From Cladosporium halotolerans (Eukaryota): DNA of 64,000 nt. A program made the translations under genes and the position numbers. Below the pieces are notes generated by a model. The model had not been told where the DNA came from and made no database searches. It saw nothing but the letters and a program-made list of their open reading frames with translations. The stretch is from NCBI RefSeq assembly GCF_011745625.1, contig NW_027191509.1, forward strand, positions 1 to 64,000, given 5' to 3'. This document shows positions 4,701-63,358 of this stretch, in pieces (position 1 is the stretch's first letter; the number at the start of each line of letters is the position of its first letter).

Positions 4701-6820
4701 GATCCCATGGGTGGACTCCGGAGCTTCCACGCCTGCCTCGGAGGCACCTGCTGTCCAAGAGCCTGGAACAGAGCGCACCTCATCGGAGTTCCCCCGTCCA
4801 GTCATGTCGAAACGCATTTCCATGCGCCCGGGCATGTTCCGTTCGGAATCAGACGGTCTTGCTCCTGATTCTGTGAACTCCAGCTCTTCCAACGCCATGG
4901 TCAACACTCCATGGTCAGGCTCCATGCGCGCCTGGGAGTTCGAGATCGAGACCATCCTCAAGTCGTTCTACAGCTCTATCAAGATCGAGCCACTGCCTTT
5001 GCTCGATCTTGCCGTCTCCGACGTGCGACCCACCGATCGCAACCTGTCTGTCGCTGGAACCAATGGGTTGAAGCGGACCGGCTCTGTCATCAGCAAGGCG
5101 CCCTCGGAAGCCGCGTCGTATCGATCCAAAGCAGGTCTGCGCGGCCTGGCGCTCGGCTGGCAGGGTCGCAACCCTCGGGTCAGGCAAAAGGTGTACCCGT
5201 CCAGCACGATTGGGTCTTCACGTACGAGCTTCGACGATAACAGTAGTCTGTACTCTCCGGCTCAGAGCAGCACTTGGAGTAAAAACTCGTATGCCAGGAC
5301 GCTCACGTCGACGTCTGTGGGCAGCCTGGGCTACCACCTTTCGCCGACTGATACTGCGTACAAGCATTCGATTGGTTTCGCAAACGCTCTTTCTCAGGCC
5401 ATCATTCGCGAGGAGGGTGGTACTGGAGCGGATACGGATTCTGTCACGCTCAAGCAAGATCTCCTAGAGGACGAGTCTCTTACATTGGAGGGCGCTCCGT
5501 GGGCGAAGGAGGGCATGGTCAAGCACAAGCATCACCTGGAGGGTCCAGAGCGCAAGAGTAAGGATCGGCACTGGAGTGATGTCTTCGCTGTCATCAGCAA
5601 GGGCAAACTCACGCTCTTCAACTTCAACACTGGCACCAGCAAGACTTACTCCCTAGGCCGCGCTCGTCTCCAGAAACACGCCGGCAGCCGCGCAGCCAGC
5701 ATCGCCAGCTCCCGCGTCGGAGGCGGCGACTGGACCGAGAACGCCGAGCAGGTCGACTCCTTCGCCCTCCGCCAGACCATCGCCTCCGTCCTGCCCAAAC
5801 CCGGCTACAGCAAAGCCCGCCCGCACGTCTGGGCCCTCAGCCTGCCCTCCGGCGCCGTCCACCTCTTCCAAGTCGGCACGCCCGAGATCGCCGACGAGTG
5901 GATGAGCACCGCAAACTACTGGTCCGCGCGCCTCAGCAAAGAGCCCCTCTCTGGCGGCGTCTCGAACATCGAATACGGCTGGTCCGACGCCGTCGTCAAC
6001 ACCGCCGCCCTCGAGCGCACGCCCTCCAACACCAGCGCCGCCACCACGCAGGCCGCCGCGCCCCCTCCCTCCATCCGCAACCGCTCCCGTGGCCACACCC
6101 ACACCTCCTCCACCGGCGGCCGCCCCAGCATCCAGTCCTCCGTCCGCAGCAGCTTCGACAACATGGGCGGCTCCGGCGGCGCCAACCGCACGCGCCTGCC
6201 CGGCGACAAAATCACCATCACCGACTGGCAGCCGCCCTCCCAGAGCATGATGGCCAGCCAGCTGATGGAAGTCGACCAGCTCAAGAGCCTGCTCGCCTAC
6301 GTCGACAGCGTCACGGCCGAGCTGGAGAGGCACAACGAGCTGAAGAGCGGGATCGAACTCGCCGTAAGTGCACCCCCTCCAAATCAAGAACAGAAAAGAA
6401 TGTGAAGCTAATGTGTCCGCGTGACAACGACAGTACTCCTCCCGCGCCTCCAACTACTTCCGCGCGATGTCCAACTGGCAGCGCAAGTCCGACTACCTGC
6501 TGCGCGAGATCGTCAAGTTCCGCACCTACGCCGAGTCCCTGCAGGCCGCCGCGCTGGCGAGGGAGAAGGTGCTGGCCCGCAGGGCCGAGAGGGAGGCCGA
6601 GCTGGCGGTCATTCGCGCCAGGGCGGCGGCCGAGCAGGCGCCGGTGGTTGTGGAGGAGGTCGAGCGCCTGCCGCTCCCGGATGAGGATCTGGATGGGGAG
6701 GGAGAGGATGAGTTCGAGGACGCGATGGAGGGCAGGGAGAGGGAGAGGGATGTTACGCCGAGGGGGAGCGAGGTGCCGCCTGCTGCTGCTGTGGCTGCTG
6801 CGGCGGTGTCGGCTGCTTGA
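1756..6820 (+). CDS. Sec7-domain + PH-domain Arf guanine-nucleotide exchange factor (Syt1/Yel1/EFA6-like), ~1664 aa; exons 1756-6363, 6434-6820
   Basis: Sec7 motifs (FDFAGMNILSTLRALCGKLVLRGETQQFDRII, SIILLNTDLH) and PH domain (KEGMVKHKHHL...WSDVFAVI...EWMSTANYWSARLS). Intron 6364-6433 (GTAAGT...GCTAAT...CAG) joins in frame to the 6467-6820 ORF. Confidence 0.9.
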
Positions 6821-7791
6821 GCGCGAGCTGGAGGCTCTTTCTTTTCATGGTGCTGGTGCTCGTGTACGACTACGATGGGCGACCTTCGATTCTCACGACC
6901 TGGAGCGGAGCAGAGCACGGCTGGACGTCTTCTATCTACACTTCCTAGACTCCGCGGTGCCAGCCAGGCTTGGATCTATCTAATGGGCGGAGCTGGTGAC
7001 TGACGACTTTTTCTCCTCACTCACGCACGACGCGGCCTTCAGTAGGCTTTTCCTTGGTTATGGAGAGGGAACGGGATGGGTGGGAGATTCTTTTTTTTTT
7101 TCTTTCTTTCTTACAGACATGTGTGATTTAGATACCCGGATTCTTCATTTAGTTTGTTGGCTTATTAGAGTTGTTGGCAATGAGAGGAAATTCATTGGTA
7201 TGCCTTGATGAGACGATCTCAATCAACGCCGCGGCTGAAGACATTCCAGGCGCGAAAGATCCGCGCAGATGAGAGTAGCATTGCTTTGCAGCTTTCCTGC
7301 CCCCACCATAAGGTAGCAAGGCAGAGGACGGTCCTCGAATGCACGTTATTTTAGCCGTATAATAATATCAACCGCGCTCCCTCACCAACCCACCCACCAA
7401 AATCTCAAATACCTACCAGACCGCCACCATCTGTGGCGCAGCCCCGCGCACCGCCTCACAGCAGAACAAGCTTCGGCGAACAAGCTTCGGAGCCGCCGCG
7501 TCGATCCATTCCATCCAGCAAGGCTGGATCTGGGCCCGCAGCGGTTGGGCTGGCTGCCCGCCTTACGAACGATCAGCTGAGAGAACCGTGGCGCGGGGGC
7601 TGGCTGCTTCGGTCTGTCAAAAGAGCAGCCGGAGCCGGGTCTTCTTTGTTTTCTTTGTGTGCTCATCCATCCGGCTTTTGCGACTTCGTCTCCTCTGCCT
7701 TCGCGCATCACTGCCAGCAGGCTACGCTAGACCTCTACCCCGGCGCGAACCCTGCGACACACCACAGTCAAGCAAGACAAGACAAGACAAG

Positions 7792-8141
7792 ATGAACAAC
7801 AACAACCGCGGCAACGAGGACTACCTCGACAAAGCGCTCGACAAGGTCGAGCAGATGGCCGGGCGGAAGGTGCGTTCGCATCCCCCATCCCCGATCGCGA
7901 CGCGACTCTCGCGCAGTCCAATGGAGCTGATCTGATGCGCGAACTACAGGCCGGCAAGAACATCGACCCGCAGAAGTACCGCAAGCAGAACGAGAAGGTC
8001 ACGGACAAGATCCGGCAGATGATCGAGAAGTTTACGGGGAAGAAGGTGAGTTTTTTGCGCTCGCGCGCGAGGCAGCATTGTGAGGGGGTTCAGGGTGCTG
8101 ACGGCGTGGTTGTCTAGATGCCGTCGAAGTTCTCGAACTGA
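7792..8141 (+). CDS. Small conserved-type fungal protein, 65 aa, 3 exons (7792-7869, 7950-8045, 8118-8141)
   Basis: Spliced product MNNNNRGNEDYLDKALDKVEQMAGRKAGKNIDPQKYRKQNEKVTDKIRQMIEKFTGKKMPSKFSN. Two phase-0 GT-AG introns with branch sites. Resembles the uncharacterised fungal EDYLDK...NEKITD...KFSN microproteins. Confidence 0.82.
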
Positions 8142-8404
8142 TGCGCCCGTGGCGACTATGGAAGGTTGAGGGGATTTATGCGGGGGGATCTTAGATCGGG
8201 ATGTAATGGGACTGCTTGAGGGCCGCTTGGGATGGGAGGGAGGTGTGGCGTCTGCTTGCGCTGTGTTTTTGAGATACCATGGAACGATTGCGGCTGGACA
8301 TTTACTGATTATTACTGTTTTTCGTCGTCTGATGTTTCAGCTAAGACGATTTGTTTCCCTCCTCATCTACCCTACAAGCCAATGAGACCGCACACCACAT
8401 CCCC

Positions 8405-9107
8405 TCACATCACTCCCTCCAACCCAAGCCTCTCCTTCGTCTCCGCAGCCCTCTCCTTATCAGCAATAAACTCCTCGATCGTCCGCCACATCTCCGCGCG
8501 AATACTACGCCTCGCGCCCGCCGCCTTCTGCCACTTCGCAAGCTCAGCATTAACCCTCGCGCGCTCCTCAGCAGAAACAGGCTTGACGTTCCCAGCCCTC
8601 AGCTTCGCAAGCGGCTCGCCCAATGCCTCTTTCTCGCTCTCCAGCGCCGCAACAGCACCCTTCAGCTCCGACACCGGCGTCACCTCAGCGCACTCGCGCA
8701 GCTGCGCGCGCAACTCCTTCTCCGCCACCTTCAGCGCCGCCGTCGCGTCCTTCAAGCGCGCCGTCTCAGCGTCCATAGCCTGCAGCGCTTCGAGAGAGGA
8801 CTCGTCGGCTTCGTCCTAGACGACATCCCTCAGCACAGGCCACGCATCCGAGCTGCAAGCAACATCATACCTGAACAGCATGATAAACAATCTGCTTCCC
8901 CGACGCGCGGGCCTCGAGCTCGCCGCGCTCGTGCAGGTCTTTGAGCAACTTGGCCGCGGCGGCTTTGGTGACGCGGTTCTTGAGGTTGGCGCTGATGTCC
9001 GTCGTGCTGTAGGGGCGGTTTTGCTTGCGGAGGTAGGCGAGGAGGAGGTCGGCGGATTGCGTGGGCGTGAGCTTGGGGTCTTGGGAGGCGGGTTTGGTTG
9101 GGGCCAT
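8405..9107 (-). CDS. HOP2: Homologous-pairing protein Hop2/TBPIP (Meu13), ~215 aa; intron 8816-8870
   Basis: Winged-helix signature LAYLRKQNRPYSTTDISANL...GKQIVYHAVQ, followed by a coiled coil ending KERLGLE. GTATGA...CTAG intron restores the frame. Confidence 0.9.
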
Positions 9108-9336
9108 GGTTGTGGGTGGGAAGGGGAGTGGTAGGTTGATGGCAAGGAGGGCGACGGTTGTTCCTGAGAAGAGTGAGATGGAGAGGTGAGGTCTGGCGGG
9201 AGCTCCCGGTGTCGAGCAGGAGGAAGGCGCGAGTGTTACGACGCGCCCGCCTCGTTGGCTTTCCAATTATATCGGTGCTGTTTGTTTATTCGAAAATGCG
9301 ATCGCGCGACATATGCAAGACAAATGCTGTCGGCCC

Positions 9337-10224
9337 CTAAGGCCCCAATCTTTGCGTGCTGCCGACCGGCCCAATAGCGATTCCGTTCGCAGCCCCGAGC
9401 GTGCCCCTGCCCGGCCCAACACCTGAGTTGTTCGCGCCCGTGCTCGGGAGCACGCCGTAACGCCCGTACGTCTTCTGGTCCACGCTGACATAGTGTGGCA
9501 GCCTGCCCAGCAGGTTAAGCTTGCCCTCGACCCAGCGCAGGATCTTCTCGCTCGGCGCCAGGAACTTGATGATGCCCAGGCCCCACAGGTATCCCACCAC
9601 CGCGCCGCAGAGGTGTCCGAGCAGGCTCGTGTGCGGGATCAGGAAGTGGATGACGAAGATGACGAACAGCGGCGTGGTCCAGGTCGGGATCGCGTAGCCG
9701 CTGATATTGAGCGCCGGGTTTTGGCGGTAGGTCTTGATCGCTTCGACGCAGAGCAGCAGGAAGACCCACACGCTTGCGCCGATGGCTGCCGAGTTGCTGC
9801 GGAAGATGTAGCGCTCGAGCAGTGTGTAGAGACCTCCGGGGAGGAGGCCGAAGGGCCCGGTGAAGAGGAGGAGGGTCACGATGGTGCCGTTCTCAGCTTC
9901 GAAGCGCTCCAGCAGCGGGACGAGCGCGATGGCGTTGAGCAGGAAGTGGAAGACATTCTTGTGCAGAAGAGGGTAGGTGTTCAAGCGGTAGACTAGACCA
10001 TCGAAGTCAGTATTGCGCCAAAAGGAAAGGTTCGCACCAGACTTACGAGTGTTGATGTTGATCTCCTGAGGGATCAGCGCTCCCCATTGCTCCAAACCCG
10101 GACGGAAAGCATGTGCGACCCAGAATGCCGTCAGCAGCGCCAGTAAGACTCTTGTCGCAAGAGGAAGCTTGGTAAAGAAGCTCCTTATGCGCCGAGCATC
10201 TGGGAGCGGGAGGGAGAAGGCCAT
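9337..10224 (-). CDS. RBD2: Rhomboid protease Rbd2, ~277 aa; in-frame intron 9993-10046
   Basis: YRLNTYPLLH...HFLLN, catalytic GASVWVF and SLLGHLCG motifs, and several TM segments. 54-nt GTAAGT...CTGAC...TAG intron. Confidence 0.88.
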   Translation of the reverse strand: MAFSLPLPDARRIRSFFTKLPLATRVLLALLTAFWVAHAFRPGLEQWGALIPQEININTRKSGANLSFWRNTDFDGLVYRLNTYPLLHKNVFHFLLNAIALVPLLERFEAENGTIVTLLLFTGPFGLLPGGLYTLLERYIFRSNSAAIGASVWVFLLLCVEAIKTYRQNPALNISGYAIPTWTTPLFVIFVIHFLIPHTSLLGHLCGAVVGYLWGLGIIKFLAPSEKILRWVEGKLNLLGRLPHYVSVDQKTYGRYGVLPSTGANNSGVGPGRGTLGAANGIAIGPVGSTQRLGP

Positions 10225-10582
10225 CGGCTCGCTCTGCTGTGTGGGCGGGCAGAGGGTGGTCACGGGCAGGCGAAGCGTCGCCTTATAGAGGCTGCAAGGC
10301 ACAACAGAGACGGCGGGCGGGCAGGGGTGTCTCTCGGGTGTCGCGCGACGTGCATGGACCTGTCGGGCGCTCTCAGGAGATTCTCGAGACCGAAATGCGG
10401 GATTGACGGCGGCAGCGACAGCTCACATGCAGGGACCGCGCAGCCGGCGTGGAGACAGCAACGGCGTCGTGGGATTGCTGGCCTCAAGACGGACTTCGGC
10501 TGTTCAGAAGGCATGGCAGATGTTTTACAGTGACATACTGTAGCTACGGAACATATTCCCGCCGAGGGGCACGTTCAGAATC

Positions 10583-12571
10583 ATGGGGTTGTGTGAGTTG
10601 CACGTCTCTTGAATGCTGCCACGGATAACTGACTGACCATCTAGCCAACAGCTGCCCGCCTCCTCACTCTTCGGCGTTCTCCAGTCCTATTGAAGCTCCC
10701 GCCCTACCTTTCTGCAGCCTGCATTGTAGTAGGTGTGGTATGGCTTCTACTGCTCCCTCTCAACGAGTACTCAAGACAAACATACGTGTCTGAGAATGCG
10801 ATTCTCCCTGGACAAGTGCACACCTACTTCGGAGGAAGCGAACATAATGTATTCCGCGCATTTCGACAAGAGGCGTACGATCAGAAAGATGCTTCGGAGG
10901 GACACAGAAATGCTGTGTTGGGTAGAATCATGCGCGAAAGCGGGTTGAAGGTTGCCGAGCAGCCATACAGCTACTACGCTGCTGGGGAGGAGATCGCCGG
11001 TACAAACGTGTATGGCATCCTCCAGGGCCCAAGAGCAGACGCTACGGAGGCTATGATCATTATGGCGGGATGGAAGAACTTCGAAGGCTTGGTTAACTAC
11101 TCTGGTGTGGCTTTGGTGTTGACGTTGGCTCGCTACTTCAGTCGCTGGAGCATCTGGAGCAAGGATATCATCGTCATCATCTCGCCAGAGAGCACATACG
11201 GCCCGATAGCATGGGTGGATGCTTATCACAGCACCTCCCCAATTGTGACGGCGACTCAGAACATCAGTGCACTGCCAATCAAATCTGGCGCATTGCAGGC
11301 GGCGGTTGCAATTGACTACCCAGTGGGCCCCTGGGGTCACCGATTCGATAAGATCGATATCCAATACGATGGACTCAACGGCGCGCTACCGAACCTCGAC
11401 TTGCTCAACACGGCCGTCTCGGTAGCCTCAGGTCAGATGAACATTGGATGCAGTCTCCACGGCATCTCTGGACACAAAGACAGCTACAACGACCGCCTCC
11501 GAACAATCGCCGCTGGCCTCGCAACCCAGTCTCTAGGCCACGCAACCGGCCCTCATTCAGCCTTCATGCCTTACCACATCGACGCCATCACTTTAAAAAC
11601 AGTCGGCGACGGCTGGCACGACGAAATGAGTCTTGGCCGCGTGACGGAAAGCCTGATCCGCTCCGTCAACAACCTCCTCGAGCACCTGCACCAAAGCTTC
11701 TTCTTCTACATCCTGCTGAACGCCAACCGCTTCGTCAGCATCGGCAACTACCTCCCCGCCGCCATGCTGATCGCCGGCAGCTTCACGATTTCCGCGCTCG
11801 CGCTCTGGGTGCAAAGCGGCCGCGCGCCTCTCCCCGAAAAAACGCCCGCGCAGCCCACAGACGAGAAAGCCAGCGCCCTCCCTCCAATGGAACTCGTCAA
11901 AGCCGGCCCGGACGCCGCCCTCGTGCCCAAACCCGCCCTGCAGTCCGTCGACCGCCACCTCTTCCTCCCAGCCCTGACGCTCCTCTCCATCCACCTCGCA
12001 AGCTTCATCCCGCTATACCTCCTCACGCACCTCCCCAGATCCGTAAGTCCCCCATCGCTGCCTCCCCCATAACCAACCCCGACCAAAGCTAACAAACCCC
12101 CAGTTCCTCCCGCCAACCCTCCACGCCCTAACAGCCCTCTCCCTCCTCCTGCCCCCGACCCTCTCCCACCTCCTCCCCGCCAACACCCGCGACCTCCAAA
12201 CCCTGCAATCCCTCTCCCTCCTCCTCCTCTCCGCAACCCTCTCCACCCTCGCCACGCTCAACTTCAGCCTCGCCTTCCTCGCCGGCCTCCTGGCCTCGCC
12301 GCTCGCGTTCGTGCGCCCTTGCCGTTCCCTTCCTGCTGCGGTGCTGAGCTATGCGGTGCTCGCGGCGCTGTCGCCGATGAGCGTGACGTATGGTTTCGCG
12401 GCGTGGTATTGGGGAAGGGGGATGGGGTTGGAGGGGGTTCTGGCGGAGTTTGCGAGGGGGTGGGAAGCGCAGGGGGTTTGGACCATGGGCGTTGTGTGGT
12501 GCGTTTGGTGGCCGGCTTGGGTTGGGGGTGGGGTGGGGGTTTGGGGGGGTGTTTTTGGGAAGCGAACGTGA
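10583..12571 (+). CDS. GAA1: GPI transamidase subunit Gaa1, ~622 aa; exons 10583-10592, 10652-12042, 12104-12571
   Basis: TYVSENAILPGQV, PRADATEA, NGALPNLDLLN, RSVNNLLEHLHQSFFFY, FVSIGNYLP and LSTLATLNFSLAF motifs. Two GT-AG introns; the first exon is less certain. Confidence 0.92.
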
Positions 12572-12715
12572 GATGATGTGGTTGGAGGAGACGAGGGGGT
12601 GCTTGGAAGGAACAGGGGGCGTTGGGGGTTGAGATAGATGGCATGAGTGCATTTGCAAGACTCCAGTAGATGAGAAGACAAGAATTCCCAATTTCATTCT
12701 TCCCACTCAATCTCT

Positions 12716-14056
12716 CTAATCCGCCTTCCACCTCCTCCCCCCTCCCTTCCGCCACAGCCAAACGGCCTCGACAGCATACGTCTTCGCGCTCAAATGCCGC
12801 CCCCCATCGACGCCGTTCCCCTCGCTCTCCGCCACCAGCTGCGGAATCACGTGCTCCCTCTCCACCTCCCTCCACAACCCGCGCGCCAACTCGCCCAAGC
12901 GATCCTGCGCATCCGGCAGATTCCCGCCCTCCTCGCCCGCGTCGCCGAACTCCCCGCGTCCCAGCCGGAACAGAATGCGCCCCAGCGTCTGGAACGCCAC
13001 GCACCGCTGCGCGGCGTACGTGCTGCGGGCCAGCAGCGCGAGCTCGGCGATCGTGTAGCCGGCGGCGTCGGGCGCGGCGCCGTGGTGGTGCAGGCCTTCG
13101 GAGACGGGGATCGCGGCCGCGGTGCGGGGCGCGAGCAGGGCGCCGGTGAAGGAGAAGCGGATGGAGGCGGGGTTGAGAGCGGCGGCGGCGGGGCTGTAGG
13201 AGGAGTTCGAGGAGGGGGAGGGAGGGCGCATCCAGTCTAGTTTTGTCGGGTCGGCGGGGAGGGAGGGGAAGTATTTTTCGTGCAGGTCGGTGAGGAAGGA
13301 GGGGGAGGCGGGGTCGAGGGCTGGGGGTTGGGTGGGGGTCGGGAAGTGGATTGTGTCGGAGGGGGGGTCGAGGGGTGCGTTGGTTTCGGGGGGGAAGTCG
13401 GGTTCGTGGGCGATGGTGATGGCGGCTTCGTCGGTCTCGTCTTTGGCTGTGGGTTGGGGGGCGGGTGGGGGGTCGTCGGCGGCGAAGGCGACGGATTTGG
13501 TTTTGGCGGGCGTTTCTCTGTGGAGGATGCCGCCCTCGATGGGCTCGGGCGGCGGCTTGAGGGTGTCCGCTTCGTTGCTGCCGCTGTCTATGTTTGAGCG
13601 GCGCAGGATTTTCTGGATGAAGTCGGGGTCCAACGAGCCGAGCAGTTCTGCGCGAGCTTCCTCGATTTCGGATTCGGACATGCCGGCGAGCATGTCGCGG
13701 TTTTGCTGGTCGATTTGAGTTTTCTCCTGTTCCTGCCAGCTTCTAGGTGCCGAGTCTTCGCTTGGTTTCGTTTTAGTAGCGGGCGCCTGAGCGCCCGGAG
13801 TCACGGTGGTCCCATCACTCAGGACAGTCTTCTGGCCTTGCTGTTTCTGCTGCTTGAATCTGCTTTGGACGGGCCTTTTGCGATGCTCTGGAAAACCCGT
13901 GCGGTGCTTGGGCGTGGGAGCGCTCGGCGGCGCGGGAGCGGTCGGTTTTCTTTCCTGGATGTCGCCTACGAATGTGAATGGCGAAGGCGCGACATGCTGC
14001 GCTTGTGGAGCGTCATCGTCGTCGACGTCCAGCACGAATTTCTCTCCTCGAAACAT
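12716..14056 (-). CDS. RBA50: RNA polymerase II assembly factor Rba50 (RPAP1 N/C domains), 446 aa
   Basis: RPAP1_N-like IDQQNRDMLAGMSESEIEEARAELLGSLDP and RPAP1_C-like RFSFTG...GLHHHG...AGYTIAELALLARSTYAAQRCVAFQTLGRIL. Confidence 0.9.
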   Translation of the reverse strand: MFRGEKFVLDVDDDDAPQAQHVAPSPFTFVGDIQERKPTAPAPPSAPTPKHRTGFPEHRKRPVQSRFKQQKQQGQKTVLSDGTTVTPGAQAPATKTKPSEDSAPRSWQEQEKTQIDQQNRDMLAGMSESEIEEARAELLGSLDPDFIQKILRRSNIDSGSNEADTLKPPPEPIEGGILHRETPAKTKSVAFAADDPPPAPQPTAKDETDEAAITIAHEPDFPPETNAPLDPPSDTIHFPTPTQPPALDPASPSFLTDLHEKYFPSLPADPTKLDWMRPPSPSSNSSYSPAAAALNPASIRFSFTGALLAPRTAAAIPVSEGLHHHGAAPDAAGYTIAELALLARSTYAAQRCVAFQTLGRILFRLGRGEFGDAGEEGGNLPDAQDRLGELARGLWREVEREHVIPQLVAESEGNGVDGGRHLSAKTYAVEAVWLWRKGGGRRWKAD

Positions 14057-15497: not shown

Positions 15498-17501
15498 ATG
15501 GCCATGTCGCCAGGCTTCGGCGACAGGATGCGGATCGACGACGCGGCGTCGGAGCACAGTTCCTCGTCAATTTCCTCGCCACCCACCTCCCCGCAAAACA
15601 GCGGCTTTGTATCAGACACCATCCGCGTCGCGCGCCCGCAGACTTCGAATCCTGCTGTTCCTGGTGGAGGTGTAGCTGCTGCATCCCCGGCTCATCCCGC
15701 TCAGCCCTCCAACCTCACAAACGCACCCGCGCTGCACGCAGGCGCGTCTGCCACAAACGCGCCCACACCACCTGCGAAGCCTAAAAGGCAACGCAAGAAG
15801 AAAGAAGTCGATGCTGATGGCAAGCCCATCGAAGACGCGAAACCAAAAGAAAAGAAACCGCGTAAGCCCAGAGAGCCCAAAGACAAGACGGCGACCACCG
15901 CCGCATCGCGCAAGAAGGTCAAGAGTGAAGACAAACCCACGCCCACGCCTACTCCCGCGCCCGCCTCCGCTCCCGATGCCTCACTGCAGCCCCGTCAATC
16001 CACCATCACTGAGATGGTGCATGCGTACGGGCAGCAACCGATGAACGCTCCGCCAACCAACGCCGTGCCTCCCCGCCCCTCGCATAACTACAGCGATGGC
16101 TTAGTGAGGCCTAACCTACACTCACACACGTCGAGCACACCGACCCCACGTCCTTTCTCAAGCGGACAGAACTACGACCCCGTCCGCTCCGCGACCATCG
16201 AATCCCACCCCCCTCGTCCCGTTCATCCACTAGCCGGGCCGGCTTCCACTCAAGTGTCGCCTCACGTGAACCGCGCCTCTGCCTCGCCGTCTATTGCCAG
16301 CCTTATTGACCCGCCGGTTGCCGTAAAAAGTTCCGCTCCGCTGTCCACCACACACTCCCCACAACAATCGATGCAACAACCCTTTGTGCCAACGCAACCG
16401 CACTCACCGACACCAAACGACAAGGTCAACGGTTCACTCTCGTCATCACTTAATCCCTCACATCCATCACCGACCGTTGCGAGCACGACACCTGCCGCTG
16501 TGTCGAATCTCGACGGCGCCATGGATATTGACTCGAAGCCCGTATCCAAACCTCAACAAGCATCGAAAGGAAGTAAGATGCCTGAGGCCAAGGAAGCTTC
16601 AAAATCAAACTCGTCCGCACCAACACCCAAGAACAGCCGCCCCACCCCGCCACCTGCCGCACCCAAAGCAGCAGGTACCGGCCTTCTCGCCAGCTCAGAT
16701 CTTTTCGGCGGAGCAACCAACAACGAAGCAACCGAGCGCCGCGGCGTAAACATCGACATCCAAATCAAGCTCAAGCCCGAAGGCGAAAACGTCATCAACA
16801 TCGCGCAAGAAATCTTCAAGAAATACGGCCAGGACGCCATCAACCCACGCGCCGCCGCCCACCGCGCCCACCTCCTGCAAGTCGCCGCCGCCGCCAACCG
16901 CATCGAAGGCGGCTCCGCGGACGACACCATGAGTGTCGACCTCTCCGACCTGGCAGACGACAGCAACGTCGAGATGGGCGGCATGGACGACACGGCCACG
17001 AGCGCGCAGCCCGGCGCCGACGGCGACAAGCCGCGCAAGCGCCGCAAGAAGGTCGAGGAGTACGACAAGGAGGACGACTTCATCGACGACACCGAGCTGG
17101 CCTGGCAGGAGCAGGCCGCCGTCTCCAAGGACGGCTTCTTCGTCTACTCCGGCCCGCTCATCCAGCCCGGCGAGGCCGCGCGCATCGAGTCCTCGGCTCC
17201 CACGCGCGGTCGCGGCAGAGGGCGAGGTCGCGGCCGTGGCAGTGCTGCTGCGGGCTCGACGCACGCTTCCCTCGCGGAGAAGAAGGATACGGGCGCCGCG
17301 CCCCCGACGACTGGGAGGGGCAGGGGCCGCGGCAGAGGCACTGGCACGACGAGGAAGCCGAGGATCACCAAGGCGGACCGCGAGAGGATGGAGGTCGAGA
17401 AGCAGGAGCGCGAGCGCGCGGCCGCGGCCACGTCTGCTGCTGCTGCGGCGGGGCCGGCGCAGCCGACGCTCGCGATGCAGACTATGGGCGCGACTGCTTA
17501 G
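15498..17501 (+). CDS. HPC2: HIR histone-chaperone complex subunit Hpc2/ubinuclein-like (HUN domain), ~667 aa
   Basis: HUN/HPC2 motif EEYDKEDDFIDDTELAWQEQAAVSKDGFFVYSGPL, an upstream INIAQEIFKKYG motif, AT-hook-like GRGR repeats and an otherwise disordered sequence. First ATG at 15498 (or 15504). Confidence 0.87.
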   Translation: MAMSPGFGDRMRIDDAASEHSSSSISSPPTSPQNSGFVSDTIRVARPQTSNPAVPGGGVAAASPAHPAQPSNLTNAPALHAGASATNAPTPPAKPKRQRKKKEVDADGKPIEDAKPKEKKPRKPREPKDKTATTAASRKKVKSEDKPTPTPTPAPASAPDASLQPRQSTITEMVHAYGQQPMNAPPTNAVPPRPSHNYSDGLVRPNLHSHTSSTPTPRPFSSGQNYDPVRSATIESHPPRPVHPLAGPASTQVSPHVNRASASPSIASLIDPPVAVKSSAPLSTTHSPQQSMQQPFVPTQPHSPTPNDKVNGSLSSSLNPSHPSPTVASTTPAAVSNLDGAMDIDSKPVSKPQQASKGSKMPEAKEASKSNSSAPTPKNSRPTPPPAAPKAAGTGLLASSDLFGGATNNEATERRGVNIDIQIKLKPEGENVINIAQEIFKKYGQDAINPRAAAHRAHLLQVAAAANRIEGGSADDTMSVDLSDLADDSNVEMGGMDDTATSAQPGADGDKPRKRRKKVEEYDKEDDFIDDTELAWQEQAAVSKDGFFVYSGPLIQPGEAARIESSAPTRGRGRGRGRGRGSAAAGSTHASLAEKKDTGAAPPTTGRGRGRGRGTGTTRKPRITKADRERMEVEKQERERAAAATSAAAAAGPAQPTLAMQTMGATA

Positions 17502-18104
17502 GAGCAAATGGCATGGTGCGACGGAGTTGGTCCTTTCGAGCACGACCGACCAACTCCGGCCGGCCGCGTGCTTTCGACATCCGAGACTTGACTTCCCTCC
17601 CAATTCACATTCTCACACGTGCCAAGCGAACACGATTCGCCAAACAGCACAGCACCGAACGGCGTTCACCAAGGCGCAGCGCCCGGTTTCACGGAGTTTC
17701 TTTCTTCTTGATCTGATCAGGGGGGTGATCATCACCAGGCAACGCGGTGTCGAGGACGAGACATCCACCGCGGGAATCGGCGTTGCACAGGCGTTCTCTT
17801 TCTCTTTCTCTTTCTTTCCCTTTTCCTTTTTTCCTCTCTTCAATTCTACGGCCTCCTTCAAGCAACGGGCCTGCTTACGGAATCAGGCTCGATTGCCGAC
17901 CGCCGGTATAGTTCGGACAAAGAAATCAAAACAAGCAGATATGCTGCGTTCGGGTGCGGGCGTGGGGCCTGCGGACGGAGGAGCAGAGCAGAGCAGAGGC
18001 TCTGTAGGCAGTTTTTTGGAGAAACGGAATCGAATGATGTAATCACGTTCTTTCCGCTTTGTGCTTTGTGTGGATTATCCAAATATCGTGGTTATGTCTC
18101 GTTC

Positions 18105-18269: not shown

Positions 18270-18666
18270 CAACGATGTTGGTCTCTCGTCGGCTATTGAT
18301 CGTTAGGTATACCTAGTTCATTTGAGTTCGAATTACACGGCTGGGTTTGATGAGGTGTAATACAGTACATGCTTTGAAAGGCGTATCTATGGATTGTTTG
18401 TACATGATGCTTTTGCAGCGATCTAGGATGCGTCTTGCATCCGAATGCTAACCTCGACGTGCGCTGCACCTTCTGCTGCGGCCTTGTGCTGGCGAGTGCA
18501 GGAGACGCTCGTAGCTGGGAGCACCTGCATGCCTCTTAGCATGCTTTTGATATCCCTCTTTCGGGGCGACAGCCATGCTTATATTCGAAGCCAGGGATCG
18601 CGGCGACAACTGCTCCCACTCGCGCAAGCCGAGAGCTCGTCCTCAACCACAGCAACGACGCTCCCT

Positions 18667-22694: not shown

Positions 22695-23092
22695 AAGGCT
22701 CCGCTAGGCCCAGAAGCGATTGCCAGACTGCCGAGGAGAATGCAGGATGCTATTATGGAAAAATAGCAGTGATATGACTTTACGAAAGCTCGCTAGGAGA
22801 GTAGAGACAAGGGGGCTCAGCAGTTGAAGGCTGGGTTAGACTACAAGTCGCCTACGAAACAGAAAGTGCTTCTATTATTCAATACCCCAACATGAAATGT
22901 ACAAACAACCAGGTAGACTGAGCCCGAGCTCGCAACGAACAGATACCCGCCAACCAGACCCAATATTTCCAACGCAACACCCACAACCCCTCTCCCATTG
23001 CTCAGCCGTGCAACTCCCCCCAAAATATCTAGTCCGATCACATCAACACACCCACTCCCACTCTCGTCGCCTCCCCCAACCGGCCCCTCCTA

Positions 23093-27176: not shown

Positions 27177-28039
27177 GCGCTGAGGGCTCTCCTCCTTTGA
27201 TCGTTCTACAGCACGCACGATGACGGCACGAGCATAGTTCGCTTTTTCTGTTTGTTTGTTCCTTTAATCAATCGCAAGATATCTCAGTAACGCTTGGGTT
27301 TTCCTCTGGGAAAGATCGAGCGTGAAGGCAGCGGGCGTACATCGGCTCCGCACACTTTTTCATTTTGTCTGCAAGGGTAGTTTCGGGTTTGGGAAAAGGG
27401 AATCAGGGGATGGGAAACTCGGGCTGGGCTAGCCGCCATCTTCCCTTTTGTATAGCGTTTTGTTGGTACTTCATTGCTGGGAAATGGAAATGGATGGTTT
27501 TCTTGCCCAACCGTCCTTGGATTCGTCATTACTATCTGTTCGTGAAACGCACCTGTCGAAAGGGGTGACCTGTGGTTAGCCCGATAGTGACCAAGCTTCG
27601 TCTTTCGTCACATTGTCGTGCGGAGCCTGAATCAAGCATAACTCATCCGGTCAAGACTCGTATCTGACATGTCTGTTGCCTCTCTCATGATGCTGTATAT
27701 AATTATATACAGGATAGCTTACGAAAATAGACTCAATCTTTCGGAGAAATTCACAACGGACAAGCAACGGACGGGCGGGCGTACCGGTACTGACACAATA
27801 TTGCATTTGCTAGTAATCACACGGGTATCTTCCCAGACCCAACAGACAGTCAAGCCAACCCGATGGGAAACCAAGGGTCTCGATGACTTCGAAAGATACC
27901 GCCTTCACGAACGAGATACGCTCCTCATCACGCCACGCCATGCATATGCCAGACCCTCAACCCCCACCACCCAACACTATCCATTCTCACAAAACAACTT
28001 CCCAATTCACCATTCCTTTGTTGCCACCACCATCTCCAC

Positions 28040-56159: not shown

Positions 56160-57664
56160 ATTAGCCACCCGTCTTCCGAGTAACCAACGGCGGAGGCGTT
56201 CTTGTGAGACCACACCGCAGAACCAAAACCCAACACGACACACAATAATACGACGACCCCACGACAGAACAGCATGGACAGAACACATCCATCCCACATC
56301 ACGCCAACACCAGCGCCGCGCGTCCTCATCACCAACCACATTCCCCCCCCCAAAACAAAGCGCCACGCAGAAGACGCAGGAAAAACACCAACGCTCCAGC
56401 ACAAGTCCCCCACACATCTCAGAACAACCTCATTGGACTCGCCCCGATTCCAAATCCCAAACGCCCTCGCGCGACCAACCAAAAACACCCAAAGGCCGTA
56501 GGTAAGCACACGCACGCCGCGTGACAGGCCAGCTACCGCACCGCACCGCGCGTAAGGAAATCGCGAACACGAACGGCACAGCATAAAAAGGTCGAGGTAC
56601 ACGAACCCAACAGAAAAGCCACAATATATTCGCGACAACTCAGCTCGTCATCTGCTGACTGCTGCCGGGCCAGGGCCAGTGAGAGGCGGCCACGGATCTT
56701 GCCTTTTGCGCGGGACCATATGCAGGGTTTCGGCGAGGGATGTTGTCGAGCGACCAACCATTGGTTTCTACCTCGACTTGAGTGTAGGGCTACTGTAGGC
56801 GTGCTCTCCCATCCCGCGCGTGGTGAGGTGGGATGTCTAGCTCTGCGCTCGCGTTTGCGCAGCTTGCGGATGCTTGTTGCTGCAGGGCTTGAGAGGCGCG
56901 GCGGCGGTGCGGTGAGGTGAAGTCGGAAGGTAGGGCGCATCCTGCCGGGTGACTGGTTTGATTGACGGCCGGACATGTAGCTACGACGCTGAAGGTGTGG
57001 GACGGGGCTCGCAGTGTTTACGCGCGTTCGAGGCGTCGTCGATCTGTGTTCGTATGCTGAGGGCTGGCAGGTATAAGTCTTAGCCGGAGGGCGGGTCGAC
57101 GTTGCGGATGTTTTTTCTTCTATCTCACTACTAGAGATTCGTGGGAGCGCCGACAAGGCAGTACACTCAGTGAGCAGGGATCGGCAGTTGGGCTCGGCGT
57201 ACTGGGGGACTTGCTCGTTGCCAGCGCTCGGTGTCGAGGTCTGGCGGGACGGTTGACAGGGTGGGTGGAGTGTTGTGGCCTGATCTCAGTGAGAGTGGGC
57301 GATAGGAGACCTGAGTGCCGTGACTAGCTCTGAGCATCAGAGAAGTGTCGGGATGTTGCGAACGGAATGTTGCGTGGGACTCGAGGACATTAAGCGTCGG
57401 ATTTGAAGACGTCCAGAACCGAGATCGTTCGCTACATGTTGCGAGCCTTCGGCGATTTCATGGAGACAAACGAGTCCTCATGTGATCTGCTTCAGAGGCA
57501 ACTCCTAGGGCCCGTCAAGTGAGAAGCGAACGAAGTTTGTCCCAGTGGTTTGACGTTCGAAAGCGTTCCTTGGATATCTCGTAGTATTTCCGTGACACCG
57601 ACATACCGTATTGAAGCTGTAAATCGGTTGATCTTCCAACAATCCCATCAATCACACTCCCTTC

Positions 57665-60382
57665 TCACTCCTCAAACCCATCATCAACAGCACCACCACC
57701 ACCTCCCTCCCCCTCCCTCGGCGCCCTCGCCTCCTGCTTCCTCCACAACCCCGCCAGAAACTCATTCGAACTCGCCTCCTCCAACCCCTTATCCTCCCTA
57801 ACCCTCAAAAACCTCGGAAACCTCAGACTCAACCCCCTCTCCTCACTCACCAACCCAATAGCAGCCGTATACGTCGGGCTCAGCGTGACATCCGCAAACG
57901 CCATCTCCCACACCTCCTGCGGCTCAAACCACACGGCCGGCTGCGCGCCGCGGTACTCGACGTACGCCGGCTGCCCGCCGCCAAGCGTGTTGTCGCCCTC
58001 CTCGCTGTACCGCTCTTTGTTCGCCTTGTAGAAGGCGTCCGTGAAGCCGCTCATGCACTTCGTGACGACCTCGAGCCCGCCCGTCTCCGCGCTGCGGCAC
58101 GCGAGCAGGATCGGCGACCACCAGGCGTTCTTGCGCCCGCTGCCGTGCCAGCCGCCGACGGGGATCAGGTCGATGGTGTCGGCGTGCGAGGCGTAGTCTT
58201 TTTTCACTTTGAGCCAGGAGTCGAGGCGTTTGTCGGGTTCGTAGGTGGCGAGGAGGGCTTTGCGGCGGGTTGAGGGAGGTTTGGGGGTGGTGGAGTCGGG
58301 GTCGTCTGGGGGGTCGGTGGGGGTTGGGTTGGTTTTGTTCTTGGGTTTGGGTTTCTTTTTGGGTTTGGAGGGGGTGGGAGGGGGTAGTTTAGGTTGTTGG
58401 TCGGCTGGGATGTCGATGTCCATTTCGGCTTGTAAGTCCGGGTTTGGAAGGTTGTCGAGGACTTTCACCATAATGCCTTCACATTTGATGTCGGTTGCTT
58501 GCTTGAAGAAGTCGGAGACGAGCTCTTGGTCTGCAGAGGTGGCGTCAAGGCTCTTGACCCAGCTGAAGTGGTTGGGGATCTCGATGAAGAGTGATCGTAG
58601 CAGATTTCTGCGCTCGCGGAAGGGTCTGTCCAGGAGCTCTTCGCCGTTCAAGTACATTAGATCGAACGCGAAGAGGCAGACGTCTACCTTAACCGATCCG
58701 ATGACTACATCTTTCCTTGCTCGATTTGCTAGTACTTGAAAGGGCTTCAGGTCGCCGGTCTCGCGGTCGACGGCCACGACTTCGCCCTCCATAATGAAGC
58801 TGCTAATGCCTTCGCCGCGAATCTTAGGTATCAGCGCGACGAGATCAGGGTACTTCTCCGTCATGACTTCGAGATGTCGGCTGAAAATCGTGACCTTCCC
58901 CTTCTCGTCGCAGTGAACCTGCGCGCGCTGGCCGTCATACTTGAACTCACAGCTGAAGTCTCGTCCTTGCAACCTGGTGAGCATCTCTCCCAGATCTCGA
59001 GTAATCCCACCCAGCATAGGTCGTAGGGGAATGTGCATCGCAAGACCACAACGGAGCAACAGCTCATCGTCAATCCCGATTTCAAGCAGTGTGGGAACGA
59101 GATCATTATAGTTAGGTCTCCTCGCAAAGCAAGCTTTCACCAGCTCTTCTGCTGGGGCATAGACCTCCGCCAACTCCTGCTTGCTCAATTTTGCCAGCTC
59201 TGATTGCTGTTTGATGGCATATTCTGCGCCAGGCGGTCTGGAAATGAGGAATGCGCGCGAAAGTGCAATCAACATGGTGGTCTTCACCGCGCCTATCCGC
59301 AGATGCTGCACGAGTGTACGCACAACGTATCTGCTCTCTTCGGCCCCCCGCGCGTCTTGGATGAGCCTGTCGACTATCCGCTGCTTGTTGTCCACACTAC
59401 CCTGACCTTTAGTGTTTGCGATCTTGACCAGGCCGTCGAACACCCCTTGGATAGTCAACGGTTTGGGCTTCCGCAGGGTCATGCTCTGCCGCTTCTTCGC
59501 CTCGAACGCCACGTCGCCGGCATCGCCGTGTTTGTCAGACAGCTTCTTCAAGCCCTGGTTGTCCAGGCCGCAGACCTTTTTCAGCGCCTTACTGATCGCG
59601 CTACCGCCCAGACCGAGTTCGAGGTCGATGTATGGCGGTGCGATGGAATTGGTCGCGAGCCAGACGGCAGGAAGTAAGGAGTCCGGGTCGCCTTCGATTA
59701 TTGTCCGGAGTAGATTCACTAGTGTGTCGACAATCTTGATCCTAGACTGGGTGCTGTTGATGAGTATAAAGCCTTGTGTCAGGAGAGCATATGTGATCCT
59801 GCCGCCTTCTGGTTCCCACTGCTTCTGCAAATCAGGCAAGTACTTCTGTGGGTTGAAAGTCATGGGTGACTCGTCGAATGGCACAGTATAGCTTGTCGTG
59901 TCTTCTTCCGCTGTTGCTGATTGCAGAGAAAGTGTGTCTTTCCTGCCAAATGATGCGAATGGATTGACGGTAGGTTTCTTTTCGGGCACTGTGTTTGCTT
60001 CATCGTCTGCAATCGGTGGGGCAGAACCCTCTGATTCTTCTTTCATTCCCTGGTCCTCTGTAACATCAGGCGGTTTCTCCTCTTCCTCGCCATGTCCCTG
60101 ACCATTGACCTCACTATTCCCGTTCACCTCTCGCAACCGATCTTGCTCATCATATTCCGCCTGCAGCTTACGCGCCAACTCTTCGTCCGTCAATGCCGGC
60201 TCCTGCCCAATGCCTCCCACAGCATCTGCTCCTCCTGAGTACAAGTCTTCATCCTCTGGGATTCCTTCAGTTTGCTCTTTTCTTGAGGCTTGCTGTTTGC
60301 CAAAGAAGAAGTCCAAGCTGCGGACTGGCTGGTTGGAGGCTTGATGGTCGTTCTTCTTACGGCGTTTGCTGGGTGTACTCAT
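57665..60382 (-). CDS. ATP-dependent DNA ligase I family paralogue (S. pombe Adl1-like rather than Cdc9, by inference), 905 aa
   Basis: Motif I CEFKYDGQRAQVH, EGEVV, FDLMYLNG, CEGIMVK, YEPDKRLDSWLKVKKDY, GLSLRFPRFLRVREDK, plus an N-terminal DNA-binding domain. Confidence 0.92.
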   Translation of the reverse strand: MSTPSKRRKKNDHQASNQPVRSLDFFFGKQQASRKEQTEGIPEDEDLYSGGADAVGGIGQEPALTDEELARKLQAEYDEQDRLREVNGNSEVNGQGHGEEEEKPPDVTEDQGMKEESEGSAPPIADDEANTVPEKKPTVNPFASFGRKDTLSLQSATAEEDTTSYTVPFDESPMTFNPQKYLPDLQKQWEPEGGRITYALLTQGFILINSTQSRIKIVDTLVNLLRTIIEGDPDSLLPAVWLATNSIAPPYIDLELGLGGSAISKALKKVCGLDNQGLKKLSDKHGDAGDVAFEAKKRQSMTLRKPKPLTIQGVFDGLVKIANTKGQGSVDNKQRIVDRLIQDARGAEESRYVVRTLVQHLRIGAVKTTMLIALSRAFLISRPPGAEYAIKQQSELAKLSKQELAEVYAPAEELVKACFARRPNYNDLVPTLLEIGIDDELLLRCGLAMHIPLRPMLGGITRDLGEMLTRLQGRDFSCEFKYDGQRAQVHCDEKGKVTIFSRHLEVMTEKYPDLVALIPKIRGEGISSFIMEGEVVAVDRETGDLKPFQVLANRARKDVVIGSVKVDVCLFAFDLMYLNGEELLDRPFRERRNLLRSLFIEIPNHFSWVKSLDATSADQELVSDFFKQATDIKCEGIMVKVLDNLPNPDLQAEMDIDIPADQQPKLPPPTPSKPKKKPKPKNKTNPTPTDPPDDPDSTTPKPPSTRRKALLATYEPDKRLDSWLKVKKDYASHADTIDLIPVGGWHGSGRKNAWWSPILLACRSAETGGLEVVTKCMSGFTDAFYKANKERYSEEGDNTLGGGQPAYVEYRGAQPAVWFEPQEVWEMAFADVTLSPTYTAAIGLVSEERGLSLRFPRFLRVREDKGLEEASSNEFLAGLWRKQEARAPREGEGGGGGAVDDGFEE

Positions 60383-61860: not shown

Positions 61861-62272
61861 TTTAGACCTAGCACGAGTTCACTGAATTGTTGTGGGCATT
61901 GAAACTGGGAAGGATACTGAGAATATATCTAAGAGGCCAGATGACGCGAGCCCCCACTTTGCAGCGATCATCCCACGGCCGCCTTCCCTCCTGCAATTCA
62001 AATACCACGCGACAGTCAGGTGTTGTCTTCAAGGTTGTCTCGCTGGCAGAAATTGTCGTCAATGGCTGTTGCAGAAGTATTTCGTGAATCAGGCCAGAGA
62101 CAGATCGCTCTAAAAAAGCGGGCCTGAGATTTACCACTCCCTTCAGAACACACGCAATGCAGGCATCAAATAAGCATTGAAGACTCGACAAAATCAAGAC
62201 TGAGGCCAAGATGTGTAGTATTACCCGCAACTAAACGCCAAAGCCCAGCCCATGACCCACCCAAAACTATCC

Positions 62273-63358
62273 TCAAGGACACTCCTCCCCATCCGCATGC
62301 TCATGATACCTCGCACACAGGCCCCTTCCCGTCCACGGCTTACACCCGCCCGTATCCTCCCCTAGAACGACTCTCTCACCCTCACTCCTCCTTACGCAAC
62401 CCGCGCAAAAAGCCCGATCGCAAGCGACGCACTTGTCGTGGCTCACGCCCGGCTTCAGCACCTCCCTGCATCCCTCGCAGGCCTTGGTACTGCTGTAGCT
62501 GCTCGGCCGCCAGGCGACGAGAGAATGCCGCGCGATGCCTTCCGGTCCGGGCCGCTTGAGCTTGACGACGAGCTCGCGCAGGAACCGGGCGTGCCACTCG
62601 TCCTTGTGCGTCTCGAGCAGCTTGTCGGTCTTCTTGTACGCGAAGAGGTCGAGGATCAGAGACCGCAGGGGCGCGGAAGACCGGATGTGCTCGTACAGGA
62701 TGCGCGTGTCGGATGGCGTGGGGACCGAATTTGTCGCCTCGCTAAGCCGTGCGATGCTGCTCAGGATGTGGTTGCTGAGGGGCGTCGTGAGCAGGCGGTC
62801 GCTGAGTCCGTACAGGTCGATGAGCAGGAAGTATTTGGGGCTGCCAACGTGGTTGCGCAGGTCGCCGTCAGCGGCGGCGTCGGCTTGTACCAGCTGCGAC
62901 CACGGCGTGGGAGCGTGAACCATGTGATGAGGGAGGTGAGGAGCTTGGTACGCAGGCCCTGGGACAGTGAGGGATCCTGTGTAGAGCCATTGGAGGAACC
63001 ACTCGAATATCTCGGGTTTCTCCTCAGGGAGGCGCACGGTTTGGTCGAGGCCCTCTGCAAAGGTGGAGTTGAGTGCTGCGGCGAAGAATGGGCTTGCGCT
63101 TGTAAGGAGCTCTTTGTGTATAATGTAGCTGACTGGTGGTCTAGAAGTATTCTTCTCGTCGCCGACGACTACGGTAGCCATGGAAGTGAATGTGCGAAAC
63201 GCCGTACGTAGGGAGACTTTAGCAGGAGTCCGACCTGGGCGGGGCCGCGAAATGGGCGGCGGGGGCGAGGGTGCACTTCGATGCGATGAGTCCGATATAG
63301 ACGAAGCCGTAGGGGATGGTTGTTCATTCGCCGGTATTCCTTGTATAGTCATTGCCAT
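62273..63358 (-). CDS. BTB/POZ-domain protein with a Cys/His-rich C-terminus, ~361 aa
   Basis: VVVGDE...YIIHKELLTSASPFFAAALNSTFAEG...VRLPEEKPEIFEWFLQWLYTG. C-terminal CEGC...CVACDRAFCAGC...CARYHEH. ATG at 63358 chosen. Confidence 0.88.
   Translation of the reverse strand: MAMTIQGIPANEQPSPTASSISDSSHRSAPSPPPPISRPRPGRTPAKVSLRTAFRTFTSMATVVVGDEKNTSRPPVSYIIHKELLTSASPFFAAALNSTFAEGLDQTVRLPEEKPEIFEWFLQWLYTGSLTVPGPAYQAPHLPHHMVHAPTPWSQLVQADAAADGDLRNHVGSPKYFLLIDLYGLSDRLLTTPLSNHILSSIARLSEATNSVPTPSDTRILYEHIRSSAPLRSLILDLFAYKKTDKLLETHKDEWHARFLRELVVKLKRPGPEGIARHSLVAWRPSSYSSTKACEGCREVLKPGVSHDKCVACDRAFCAGCVRRSEGERVVLGEDTGGCKPWTGRGLCARYHEHADGEECP

Follow-up and report, generated by a model that had tools for sequence, protein, structure and literature searches.

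The 64,000 nucleotides (nt) of Cladosporium halotolerans DNA analysed here (contig NW_027191509.1, positions 1 to 64,000; hereafter the window) are compact, GC-rich (58.8%) fungal nuclear DNA in which protein-coding genes end in a compositional dipole: read on the sense strand, a C/A-rich arm extending from about -1000 to -350 nt relative to the stop codon gives way to a G/T-rich arm that runs from about -300 to about +100 nt past the stop. A first-pass annotation made from the letters alone had noticed this flip on both strands and had held that no standard feature class names it. The observation was correct, and the pattern itself is not a discovery: a 2011 paper already described it in more than 60 fungi (McLean and Tirosh 2011, BMC Genomics 12:638, PMC3315797), and what the window holds is the intragenic GC-skew polarity of that paper (its “group four” pattern), at high amplitude in an ascomycete, a trait that is published but unexplained. 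The amplitude is such that the polarity can be read in single genes, exposing an anatomy which genome averages hide, namely, that A/T moves with G/C at silent sites, that it is the 3′ end rather than the promoter to which the C arm is anchored, and that two opposed, overlapping pressures produce a spike of silent-site GC content. This anatomy narrows the possible mechanisms, and yields clear predictions for strand-resolved mutation spectra and maps of RNA-DNA hybrids. As to the cause, we give about even weight to a substitution bias tied to the transcription unit.

Flips in GC skew were scored with 300-nt arms, and those with a delta of at least 0.35 were regarded as strong. The window contains 15 strong C-to-G flips, with delta up to 0.83, and 16 strong flips in the opposite, G-to-C direction, the returns being as sharp as the jumps (down to -0.74). 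The largest absolute delta was 0.32 in 100 mononucleotide shuffles and 0.45 in 100 shuffles of 50-nt blocks, with a delta of at least 0.35 being reached at least once in 74 of the latter. In all 19 genes for which a frame could be set, the best local C-to-G flip precedes the stop by 126-602 nt (median 296), and in 13 of them its delta is above 0.32, and hence above every base shuffle. Delta among genes spans 0.14-0.83, with the weaker flips found in the rhomboid, HPC2, BSD2, DnaJ-TPR and GTPase genes and in the gene at 20 kb. Twelve of the 15 strong C-to-G flips, as opposed to none of the 16 strong G-to-C flips, are located 100-550 nt upstream of a stop, in a zone comprising 13.4% of the window (binomial p = 1e-8); the other three are at 34716, in the 5′ part of the DnaJ-TPR gene, and at the unassigned positions 43143 and 48468.

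The sense-strand metagene of GC skew (18 genes) descends from about 0 at -1500 to -0.38 at -700, and then rises to +0.49 in the last 100 nt, where the skew is positive in every one of the 18 genes; it declines beyond +100, and the G arm ends at a median of 102 nt past the stop. Single genes attain skews of -0.7 and +0.75. The annotation had claimed that most genes carry the flip just upstream of their stop codon, alike on both strands, and the counts above, together with the metagene, bear out both the position and the anchoring at gene 3′ ends. Its by-eye centres were also accurate, with 13 out of 15 falling within 80 nt of a computed local maximum and that of Sec7 about 100 nt away; for HPC2, a flip is indeed present, but it is weak and broad, and the position proposed for it was off by about 250 nt.

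Fourfold-degenerate sites had been named in advance as the place where the pattern might vanish. The sign change persists there: in 17 genes, the fourfold-site GC skew is -0.07 far upstream, -0.64 at -900 to -600, and +0.45 in the last 100 nt, with C making up 0.68 of such sites at -600 to -450, while over the last 300 nt G accounts for 0.46-0.53, T for 0.12-0.30 and A for 0.04-0.07. AT skew turns as well, from +0.27 to -0.67 at fourfold sites and from +0.28 to -0.09 at all sites in the metagene, and across 200-nt windows the two skews are anticorrelated (r = -0.36, n = 320), as would follow from deamination-type change, which predicts coupled opposite skews. GC content at fourfold sites (GC4) increases from 0.59 far upstream to 0.90 at -450 to -300, and then drops to 0.64. 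In codons ending in a pyrimidine (NNY), the share of C starts at 0.65, reaches 0.84-0.92 between -900 and -300, and falls to 0.27 at the stop; in those ending in a purine (NNR), the share of G starts at 0.60, dips to 0.45 at -900 to -600, and stays at about 0.9 (0.91) over the last 300 nt, with slight noise added to both series by the second HOP2 exon, which is one base out of frame in this table.

The contention that the pattern overrides codon choice also stands after amino-acid sequence is controlled for. Synonymous shuffling of 14 genes leaves a mean delta of 0.29, compared with 0.63 observed; in 11 of the 14, none of 500 shuffles reached the observed delta, and in the worst case 28 out of 500 did. 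About half of the effect is codon placement, and about half is amino-acid choice; since the flip survives synonymous shuffling, it is not a protein effect. The amino-acid half is conspicuous in its own right (15 genes): Gly constitutes 14.8% of the last 80 residues and 5.0% of the C arm, the corresponding values for Pro are 3.7% and 9.6%, and Glu, Arg and Val are likewise raised in the G arm, as are Thr, Ser, Ile and Asn, along with Pro, in the C arm. Non-coding DNA behaves in the same manner. The 80 nt past the stop have a GC skew of +0.28, with G exceeding C in 15 of 19 genes, and introns follow the arm in which they reside (C29 versus G7 in the C-arm intron of GAA1, G21 versus C10 in the G-arm intron of HOP2). 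Because the dipole is present in silent sites, introns, the 3′ flank and amino-acid choice, it must act on DNA or RNA, and not on protein.

Upstream of the flip, pyrimidine silent sites shift towards C and purine sites mildly towards A; downstream, purine sites shift towards G, and pyrimidine sites increasingly towards T on approach to the stop. The two arms are mirror images, showing the same transition-type shifts on opposite strands, and two opposite strand-specific pressures meet near -375 nt; the silent-site GC spike arises because both overlap at about -450 to -300. Long genes, such as MSN5, ligase, GH5 and RSC1, are unskewed in the middle, which assigns the C arm to the 3′ end instead of the promoter. 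Gene starts are only mildly C-biased, the mean skew between -200 and +300 relative to the first ATG being -0.14 to -0.18.

Frames and strands of the genes were set from Pfam matches, which comprise Sec7, HOP2, rhomboid, GAA1, RPAP1/RBA50, HPC2, mitochondrial ribosomal S2, BSD2, exportin-5/MSN5, DnaJ-TPR, GH5 hydrolase, OTU1, RSC1, GTPase, DNA ligase I and BTB, and the strands assigned in the first-pass annotation agree with this placement. The J-domain open reading frame (ORF) has its stop at 23093, and the DNA ligase I falls into an Ascomycota-dominated protein cluster. Introns of Sec7 and GAA1 were taken from spliced RNA contigs: contigs of two runs carry GT..AG joints at 6363/6434, 7867/7948, 8043/8116 and 12042/12104 which are without counterpart in the DNA runs, identifying these two runs as spliced RNA; the same contigs place the stop of Sec7 at 6820 and the intron of GAA1 at 12043-12103. 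The RNA contigs are unstranded, and give neither transcript ends nor levels. That the window sequence is no assembly artefact follows from DNA contigs of two more runs, which match it collinearly over 20 kb with an identity of about 97-98%. The dipoles, and the introns that lie in or near them, are as follows.

5600..6858, plus strand: Sec7 dipole, flip at about 6552, stop at 6820, G arm ending at 6858; the outer limit of the C arm is approximate.
6364-6433, plus strand: Sec7 intron near the dipole centre, spliced at 6363/6434.
8335..9235, minus strand: HOP2 dipole spanning the whole short gene, flip at 8926, stop at 8405, G arm ending at 8335.
8816-8870, minus strand: HOP2 intron in the G arm, G/T-rich (G21 T17 C10 A7).
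9235..10600, minus strand: weaker rhomboid dipole, flip at 9606 (delta 0.28), stop at 9337; the downstream neighbour is co-oriented.
11300..12682, plus strand: GAA1 dipole, the strongest, flip at 12333 (delta 0.83), stop at 12571, G arm ending at 12682.
12043-12103, plus strand: GAA1 intron in the C arm, C/A-rich (C29 A18 G7 T7).
12682..13600, minus strand: RBA50/RPAP1 dipole, convergent with GAA1, flip at 13012, stop at 12716.
15600..17531, plus strand: weak and broad HPC2 dipole, flip at 16899-17150 (delta 0.19), stop at 17501.
18605..20100, minus strand: dipole of MRP4 (mitochondrial ribosomal S2), flip at 19085, stop at 18667, GC content of 0.77 at the centre.
21900..22840, plus strand: dipole of an unnamed 866-codon ORF, flip at 22378 (delta 0.28), stop at 22694.
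22840..23600, minus strand: J-domain gene dipole, flip at 23219 (delta 0.69), stop at 23093.
26000..27672, plus strand: BSD2 dipole, shifted 3′-ward, flip at 27035, 141 nt before the stop at 27176; the G-rich stretch extends about 500 nt beyond the stop.
27917..29100, minus strand: MSN5/exportin-5 dipole, flip at 28323 (delta 0.69), stop at 28040, in a 3.8-kb gene with an unskewed middle.
32300..33231, plus strand: dipole of an unnamed 308-codon ORF, flip at 32844 (delta 0.66), stop at 33226.
33231..34400, minus strand: weak DnaJ-TPR dipole, flip at 33710 (delta 0.14), stop at 33427; near its 5′ end, the gene has a second flip, at 34716, which is stronger.
37000..38001, plus strand: GH5 dipole, flip at 37642, stop at 37881.
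38001..39143, minus strand: OTU1 dipole, flip at 38689, stop at 38222.
41500..42519, plus strand: RSC1 dipole, flip at 42086, stop at 42485.
43667..44800, minus strand: weaker GTPase dipole, flip at 44060 (delta 0.27), stop at 43740.
57557..58700, minus strand: DNA ligase I dipole, flip at 58092, stop at 57665; orthologues on related fungal contigs have the same flip.
62183..63400, minus strand: BTB dipole, flip at 62543, stop at 62273; the downstream neighbour is co-oriented.

Strand alternates for most genes of the window, creating convergent pairs; in the manual map, only Sec7, rhomboid and BTB (3 of 19 genes) are arranged in tandem with their neighbour, with flips of 0.33, 0.28 and 0.39, respectively. 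The stops of GAA1 and RBA50, on opposite strands at 12571-12716, are separated by about 145 nt, so that their 3′ untranslated regions must overlap or be very short. The end of one RNA contig, at 22873, lies close to the G-to-C flip of position 22840, a weak hint at most. A second C-to-G flip, as a rule smaller, is seen 100-500 nt downstream of the start codon in some long genes (at 34716, near 31550 in MSN5 and near 60300 in the ligase), and a long gene with two flips reads C-G, neutral, C-G. Several arms have clusters of canonical G-quadruplex motifs on their G-rich strand, each motif consisting of four runs of at least three G, at 12411, 12519, 13248-13451, 58298-58361 and elsewhere, which is probably a by-product of composition. 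CpG depletion is absent from the window, with observed/expected ratios of 1.04-1.16 in the arms and 1.03 overall, and decay through cytosine methylation was rejected on these grounds.

Two stretches occupied by broken genes, at 24.3-25.7 kb and 60.4-62.1 kb, lack a dipole, as the first-pass annotation had noted: their GC content is 0.41-0.59, on the low side in both, and skew is mostly near 0. In the second of them, an alpha/beta-hydrolase frame at 60841-61878 on the minus strand, of lower GC content and without a dipole, is interrupted by a single in-frame stop at 61423-61425, and represents either a pseudogene or a gene with the stop inside an unrecognised intron. The broken J-domain gene gave no tblastn match to the intact one at E <= 1e-3, and its origin as a decayed copy of the latter is unsupported.

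A few other features of the window deserve mention. A gene at 7366-8300 on the plus strand has no Pfam match; it has two introns, at about 7868-7947 and 8044-8115, for which spliced contigs from the two RNA runs provide confirmation. The segment 46600-57600, about 11 kb with GC content ranging from 0.49 to 0.74, contains 93 ORFs of at least 70 codons, none of which reaches the Pfam cut-off; skew dipoles like those of genes are nevertheless present near 48468, 55550 and 56650, together with a turn from G to C near 51800. Genes encoding low-complexity or lineage-specific proteins are probably located in this segment, and their 3′ ends could be placed with the aid of these dipoles. In the region of the J-domain gene, 640 bases (23287-23926) are absent from a DNA contig of another strain, apparently because the strains differ in structure. 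Short tandem-like repeats occur as two pairs, at 18102-18269 (87 nt, 83% identity) and 55948-56159 (73 nt, 79% identity); the former lies in the spacer of low GC content that separates HPC2 from MRP4, and at this place two other strains have 26-29 different letters replacing about 90-100 bases.

With the ligase protein as a query, 80 fungal metagenome loci were recovered at 56-87% identity, 58 of which are distinct. The C-then-G pattern occupies the same place in most of the 74 ligase orthologues in which the stop could be placed. Across 140 long ORFs on the 58 distinct contigs, fourfold-site skew moves from -0.39 to +0.22, and in the 80 non-ligase ORFs it moves from -0.25 to +0.10, with 55 out of 78 showing a rise; the flip on both axes recurs in these relatives, more weakly. 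Mean delta is positive in 23 of the 24 sources with at least three ORFs, and the window ranks 5th of the 24, its own figures being diluted by automated ORF picking. Since the sign is the same across related contigs, the trait is lineage-wide; it is strong in the window, of high amplitude but not unique. Orientation of the neighbouring gene makes no difference in the relatives (0.25 for 45 convergent and 0.26 for 44 tandem cases, p = 0.93), a comparison drawn from noisy ORF calls, in that the automated procedure finds 7 tandem genes in the window, compared with 3 of 19 in the manual map.

How might such a dipole have arisen? The explanation on which we place about even odds is that the published polarity results from a strand-asymmetric substitution bias coupled to the transcription unit. 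Judging from composition, A-to-G and C-to-T changes would accumulate on whichever strand ends up G/T-rich, that is, over roughly the last 400 nt on the sense strand, and over roughly the preceding 600 nt on the antisense strand. Sense polymerases pausing near the transcript end, or RNA-DNA hybrids formed there, might expose the strand to such changes; antisense transcription, assumed to start from the 3′ nucleosome-free region, might do likewise further in, and G-richness could reinforce hybrid formation. A more specific version, in which terminal R-loops in sense and antisense pairs, or else paused polymerases, operate at essentially all genes and exert two opposed deamination-type pressures, strikes us as rather unlikely. 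If it were true, the coupled A/T and G/C flip would revive the deamination explanation set aside in the 2011 paper, the skew would be self-reinforcing, as G-richness favours hybrids, and a high-amplitude fungus would become a natural system for settling the deamination question.

Several considerations weigh against transcription-coupled substitution bias. Equilibrium composition cannot separate mutation bias from selection or biased fixation, and antisense transcription is assumed rather than seen. The sign is ambiguous: because the sense strand is C-rich around fungal start sites, both in PMC555766 and in this window, the fungal signature of transcription may be the reverse of the mammal-like one assumed for the G arm. 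In PMC3315797, G bias is reported to peak at the stop codon, and not in the termination region, and in our metagene the skew is +0.49 in the last 100 nt versus +0.19 just past the stop; a peak at the stop is therefore awkward for a purely termination-linked cause. The correlation with expression reported in the same paper for Candida albicans is very weak. The J-domain gene has a strong dipole, yet no contig from the two RNA runs covers 23009-24999, which proves little. The dipole-free broken genes speak for this explanation, but they are only two in number.

Selection for termination or insulation is a live rival, even if we rate it as improbable. According to it, the terminal G/T arm is selected as a device in which G-rich RNA, through R-loops or G-quadruplexes, pauses polymerase II near the poly(A) site, with the mirror-image C arm doing the same to antisense polymerases or to those reading through from a neighbour, which would be useful where convergent stops are about 145 nt apart. 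About 2000 closely arranged human genes with 3′ GC skew and terminal R-loops (PMC3787257) provide a precedent. The window is very compact, as the spacing of the GAA1 and RBA50 stops illustrates, the arms read C-rich and then G-rich in either direction of travel, G-quadruplex motifs are present on the G-rich strand of several G arms (e.g. 12411, 12519 and 13248-13451), and the broken genes do without the pattern. Mammalian pause elements sit downstream of the poly(A) site, whereas the G arm lies upstream of its likely position; moreover, the effect is graded, about 1 kb wide and without a motif, its amplitude varies widely from gene to gene (delta 0.14-0.83), and convergent and tandem neighbours are equal in relatives (0.25 versus 0.26, from the noisy ORF calls). 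A footprint of recombination, either as a hotspot of GC-biased conversion about 375 nt before the stop or as deamination of resected strands around double-strand breaks, appears less probable still. The sharp silent-site GC peak at the centre (GC4 of 0.90 versus 0.59 far upstream) would suit the former; the arms, at 400-1000 nt, resemble yeast meiotic resection tracts in length, and resection from breaks in intergenic nucleosome-free regions would leave G/T-rich DNA on the left and C/A-rich DNA on the right, which fits the G-to-C flips at gene ends. Conversion fails on the arms themselves, in which pyrimidine and purine silent sites go in opposite GC directions: the G share of NNR codons is 0.45 where the C share of NNY codons is 0.84-0.92, and the latter is 0.27 where the former is about 0.9, contrary to an AT-to-GC fixation bias that is symmetric. 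Were the break at the C-to-G centre, the opposite sign would be expected, and intergenic breaks leave the promoter-distant C arm of long genes unexplained.

We attach little credence to the nucleotide-supply model put forward in PMC3315797, in which genes avoid C close to their 3′ ends and employ it upstream, tuning the flow of polymerases under limiting CTP. It fits the G/C part of the pattern, but would not lead one to expect the joint flip of A/T at silent sites (fourfold AT skew from +0.27 to -0.67), the confinement of the C arm to about 600 nt before the flip in long genes, or the mirror symmetry. Selection for a long fold-back of the mRNA, pairing the C/A arm with the G/U arm, had been suggested in the first-pass annotation, and seems very improbable to us. 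The arms are complementary in composition, with 51-143 out of 145-168 predicted pairs joining one arm to the other, and the native folding energy is somewhat below that of shuffles, with a mean z of -1.56 against within-arm dinucleotide shuffles (10 dipoles) and of -1.42 against within-arm codon shuffles (8 genes). Native arm-to-arm pairs, on the other hand, are no more numerous than after within-arm codon shuffling (e.g. 130 versus 118, 73 versus 91, and 51 versus 78), z falls below -2 against the codon shuffle in only one of the 8 genes, the longest repeat that self-BLAST recovers, whatever the orientation, measures 87 nt, and translating ribosomes would unwind most of the helix. The same annotation had pointed to replication origins, with a skew jump and a G/T-rich leading strand at each centre, and this possibility can for practical purposes be dismissed. 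Skew jumps at bacterial and human origins do share the sign of the upward C-to-G jump. Eukaryotic origins are tens of kb apart, their position is independent of gene ends, and the return between jumps is gradual, whereas here 19 centres are found in 64 kb, about one per gene, each linked to a stop codon and in sense orientation, whichever strand the gene is on, and the G-to-C returns are equally sharp; furthermore, the pattern is missing from the two broken genes, and distant relatives have conserved the flip at the corresponding position of the orthologous gene.

Whatever its cause, the dipole has consequences for the genes that carry it. It biases the C-terminal 80 residues or so toward Gly, Glu, Arg and Val, and in GC-rich fungi it gives rise to long shadow ORFs on the antisense strand; gene finders could also make use of it in placing 3′ ends.

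Among known systems, the GRINS of bacteria (Nivina et al. 2021, PMC8256042) share with the window intense coupled GC and TA skews which change abruptly within about 1 kb and are strongest at third codon positions, as well as enrichment of Gly, Val and Trp in G/T-rich parts and of Pro, Thr and His in C/A-rich parts. They are described as duplicated regions longer than 500 bp with more than 80% identity that are linked to gene conversion; the arms in the window, by contrast, are not repeats, and are tied to stop codons. Self-BLAST of the window yielded only the two short repeat pairs of 87 and 73 nt, in either orientation, and assignment to GRINS was rejected, the longest non-self match being 87 nt as opposed to the more than 500 bp required. 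The C-over-G skew that plants and certain fungi are reported to have around their transcription start sites (Fujimori et al. 2005, PMC555766) resembles the window in that the sense strand is C-rich near gene starts; that skew belongs to the 5′ end, while the dipole is anchored to the 3′ end and is stronger.

The human genes of Ginno et al. (2013, PMC3787257), about 2000 in number, have positive coding-strand GC skew at their 3′ ends in a gene-dense setting, as do the genes of the window, and that system supplies a mechanism joining skew to termination. It differs in that a subset of genes is involved, as compared with nearly all genes here, that in the window a C arm precedes the G arm, and that human promoters are G-skewed whereas 5′ ends here are C-skewed.

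The closest counterpart remains the pattern of McLean and Tirosh, in which fungal genes are mostly C-biased with a small G-biased 3′ region. The bias is reported to reach untranslated regions, fourfold sites and amino-acid usage; in its treatment of causes, the paper weighs a mutational model against one of CTP supply and does not settle on either. Our literature search for the mechanism of fungal 3′ skew found nothing specific beyond this paper, and none of the three citing papers that it turned up deals with mechanism. The window shares with the published pattern the upstream C bias, the 3′ G bias and its reach past the stop, the involvement of fourfold sites and the shift in amino acids, as well as the occurrence in many fungi, including filamentous ascomycetes. 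In three respects it departs from the published description. A/T flips together with G/C at silent sites, whereas the AT skew in the paper is given as flat, positive and positively correlated with GC skew, and was used there as an argument against deamination; and the C bias is gathered into a stretch of roughly 600 nt preceding the flip, instead of being gene-wide. The third difference is the spike of silent-site GC content, which reaches 0.90 at the centre of the dipole.

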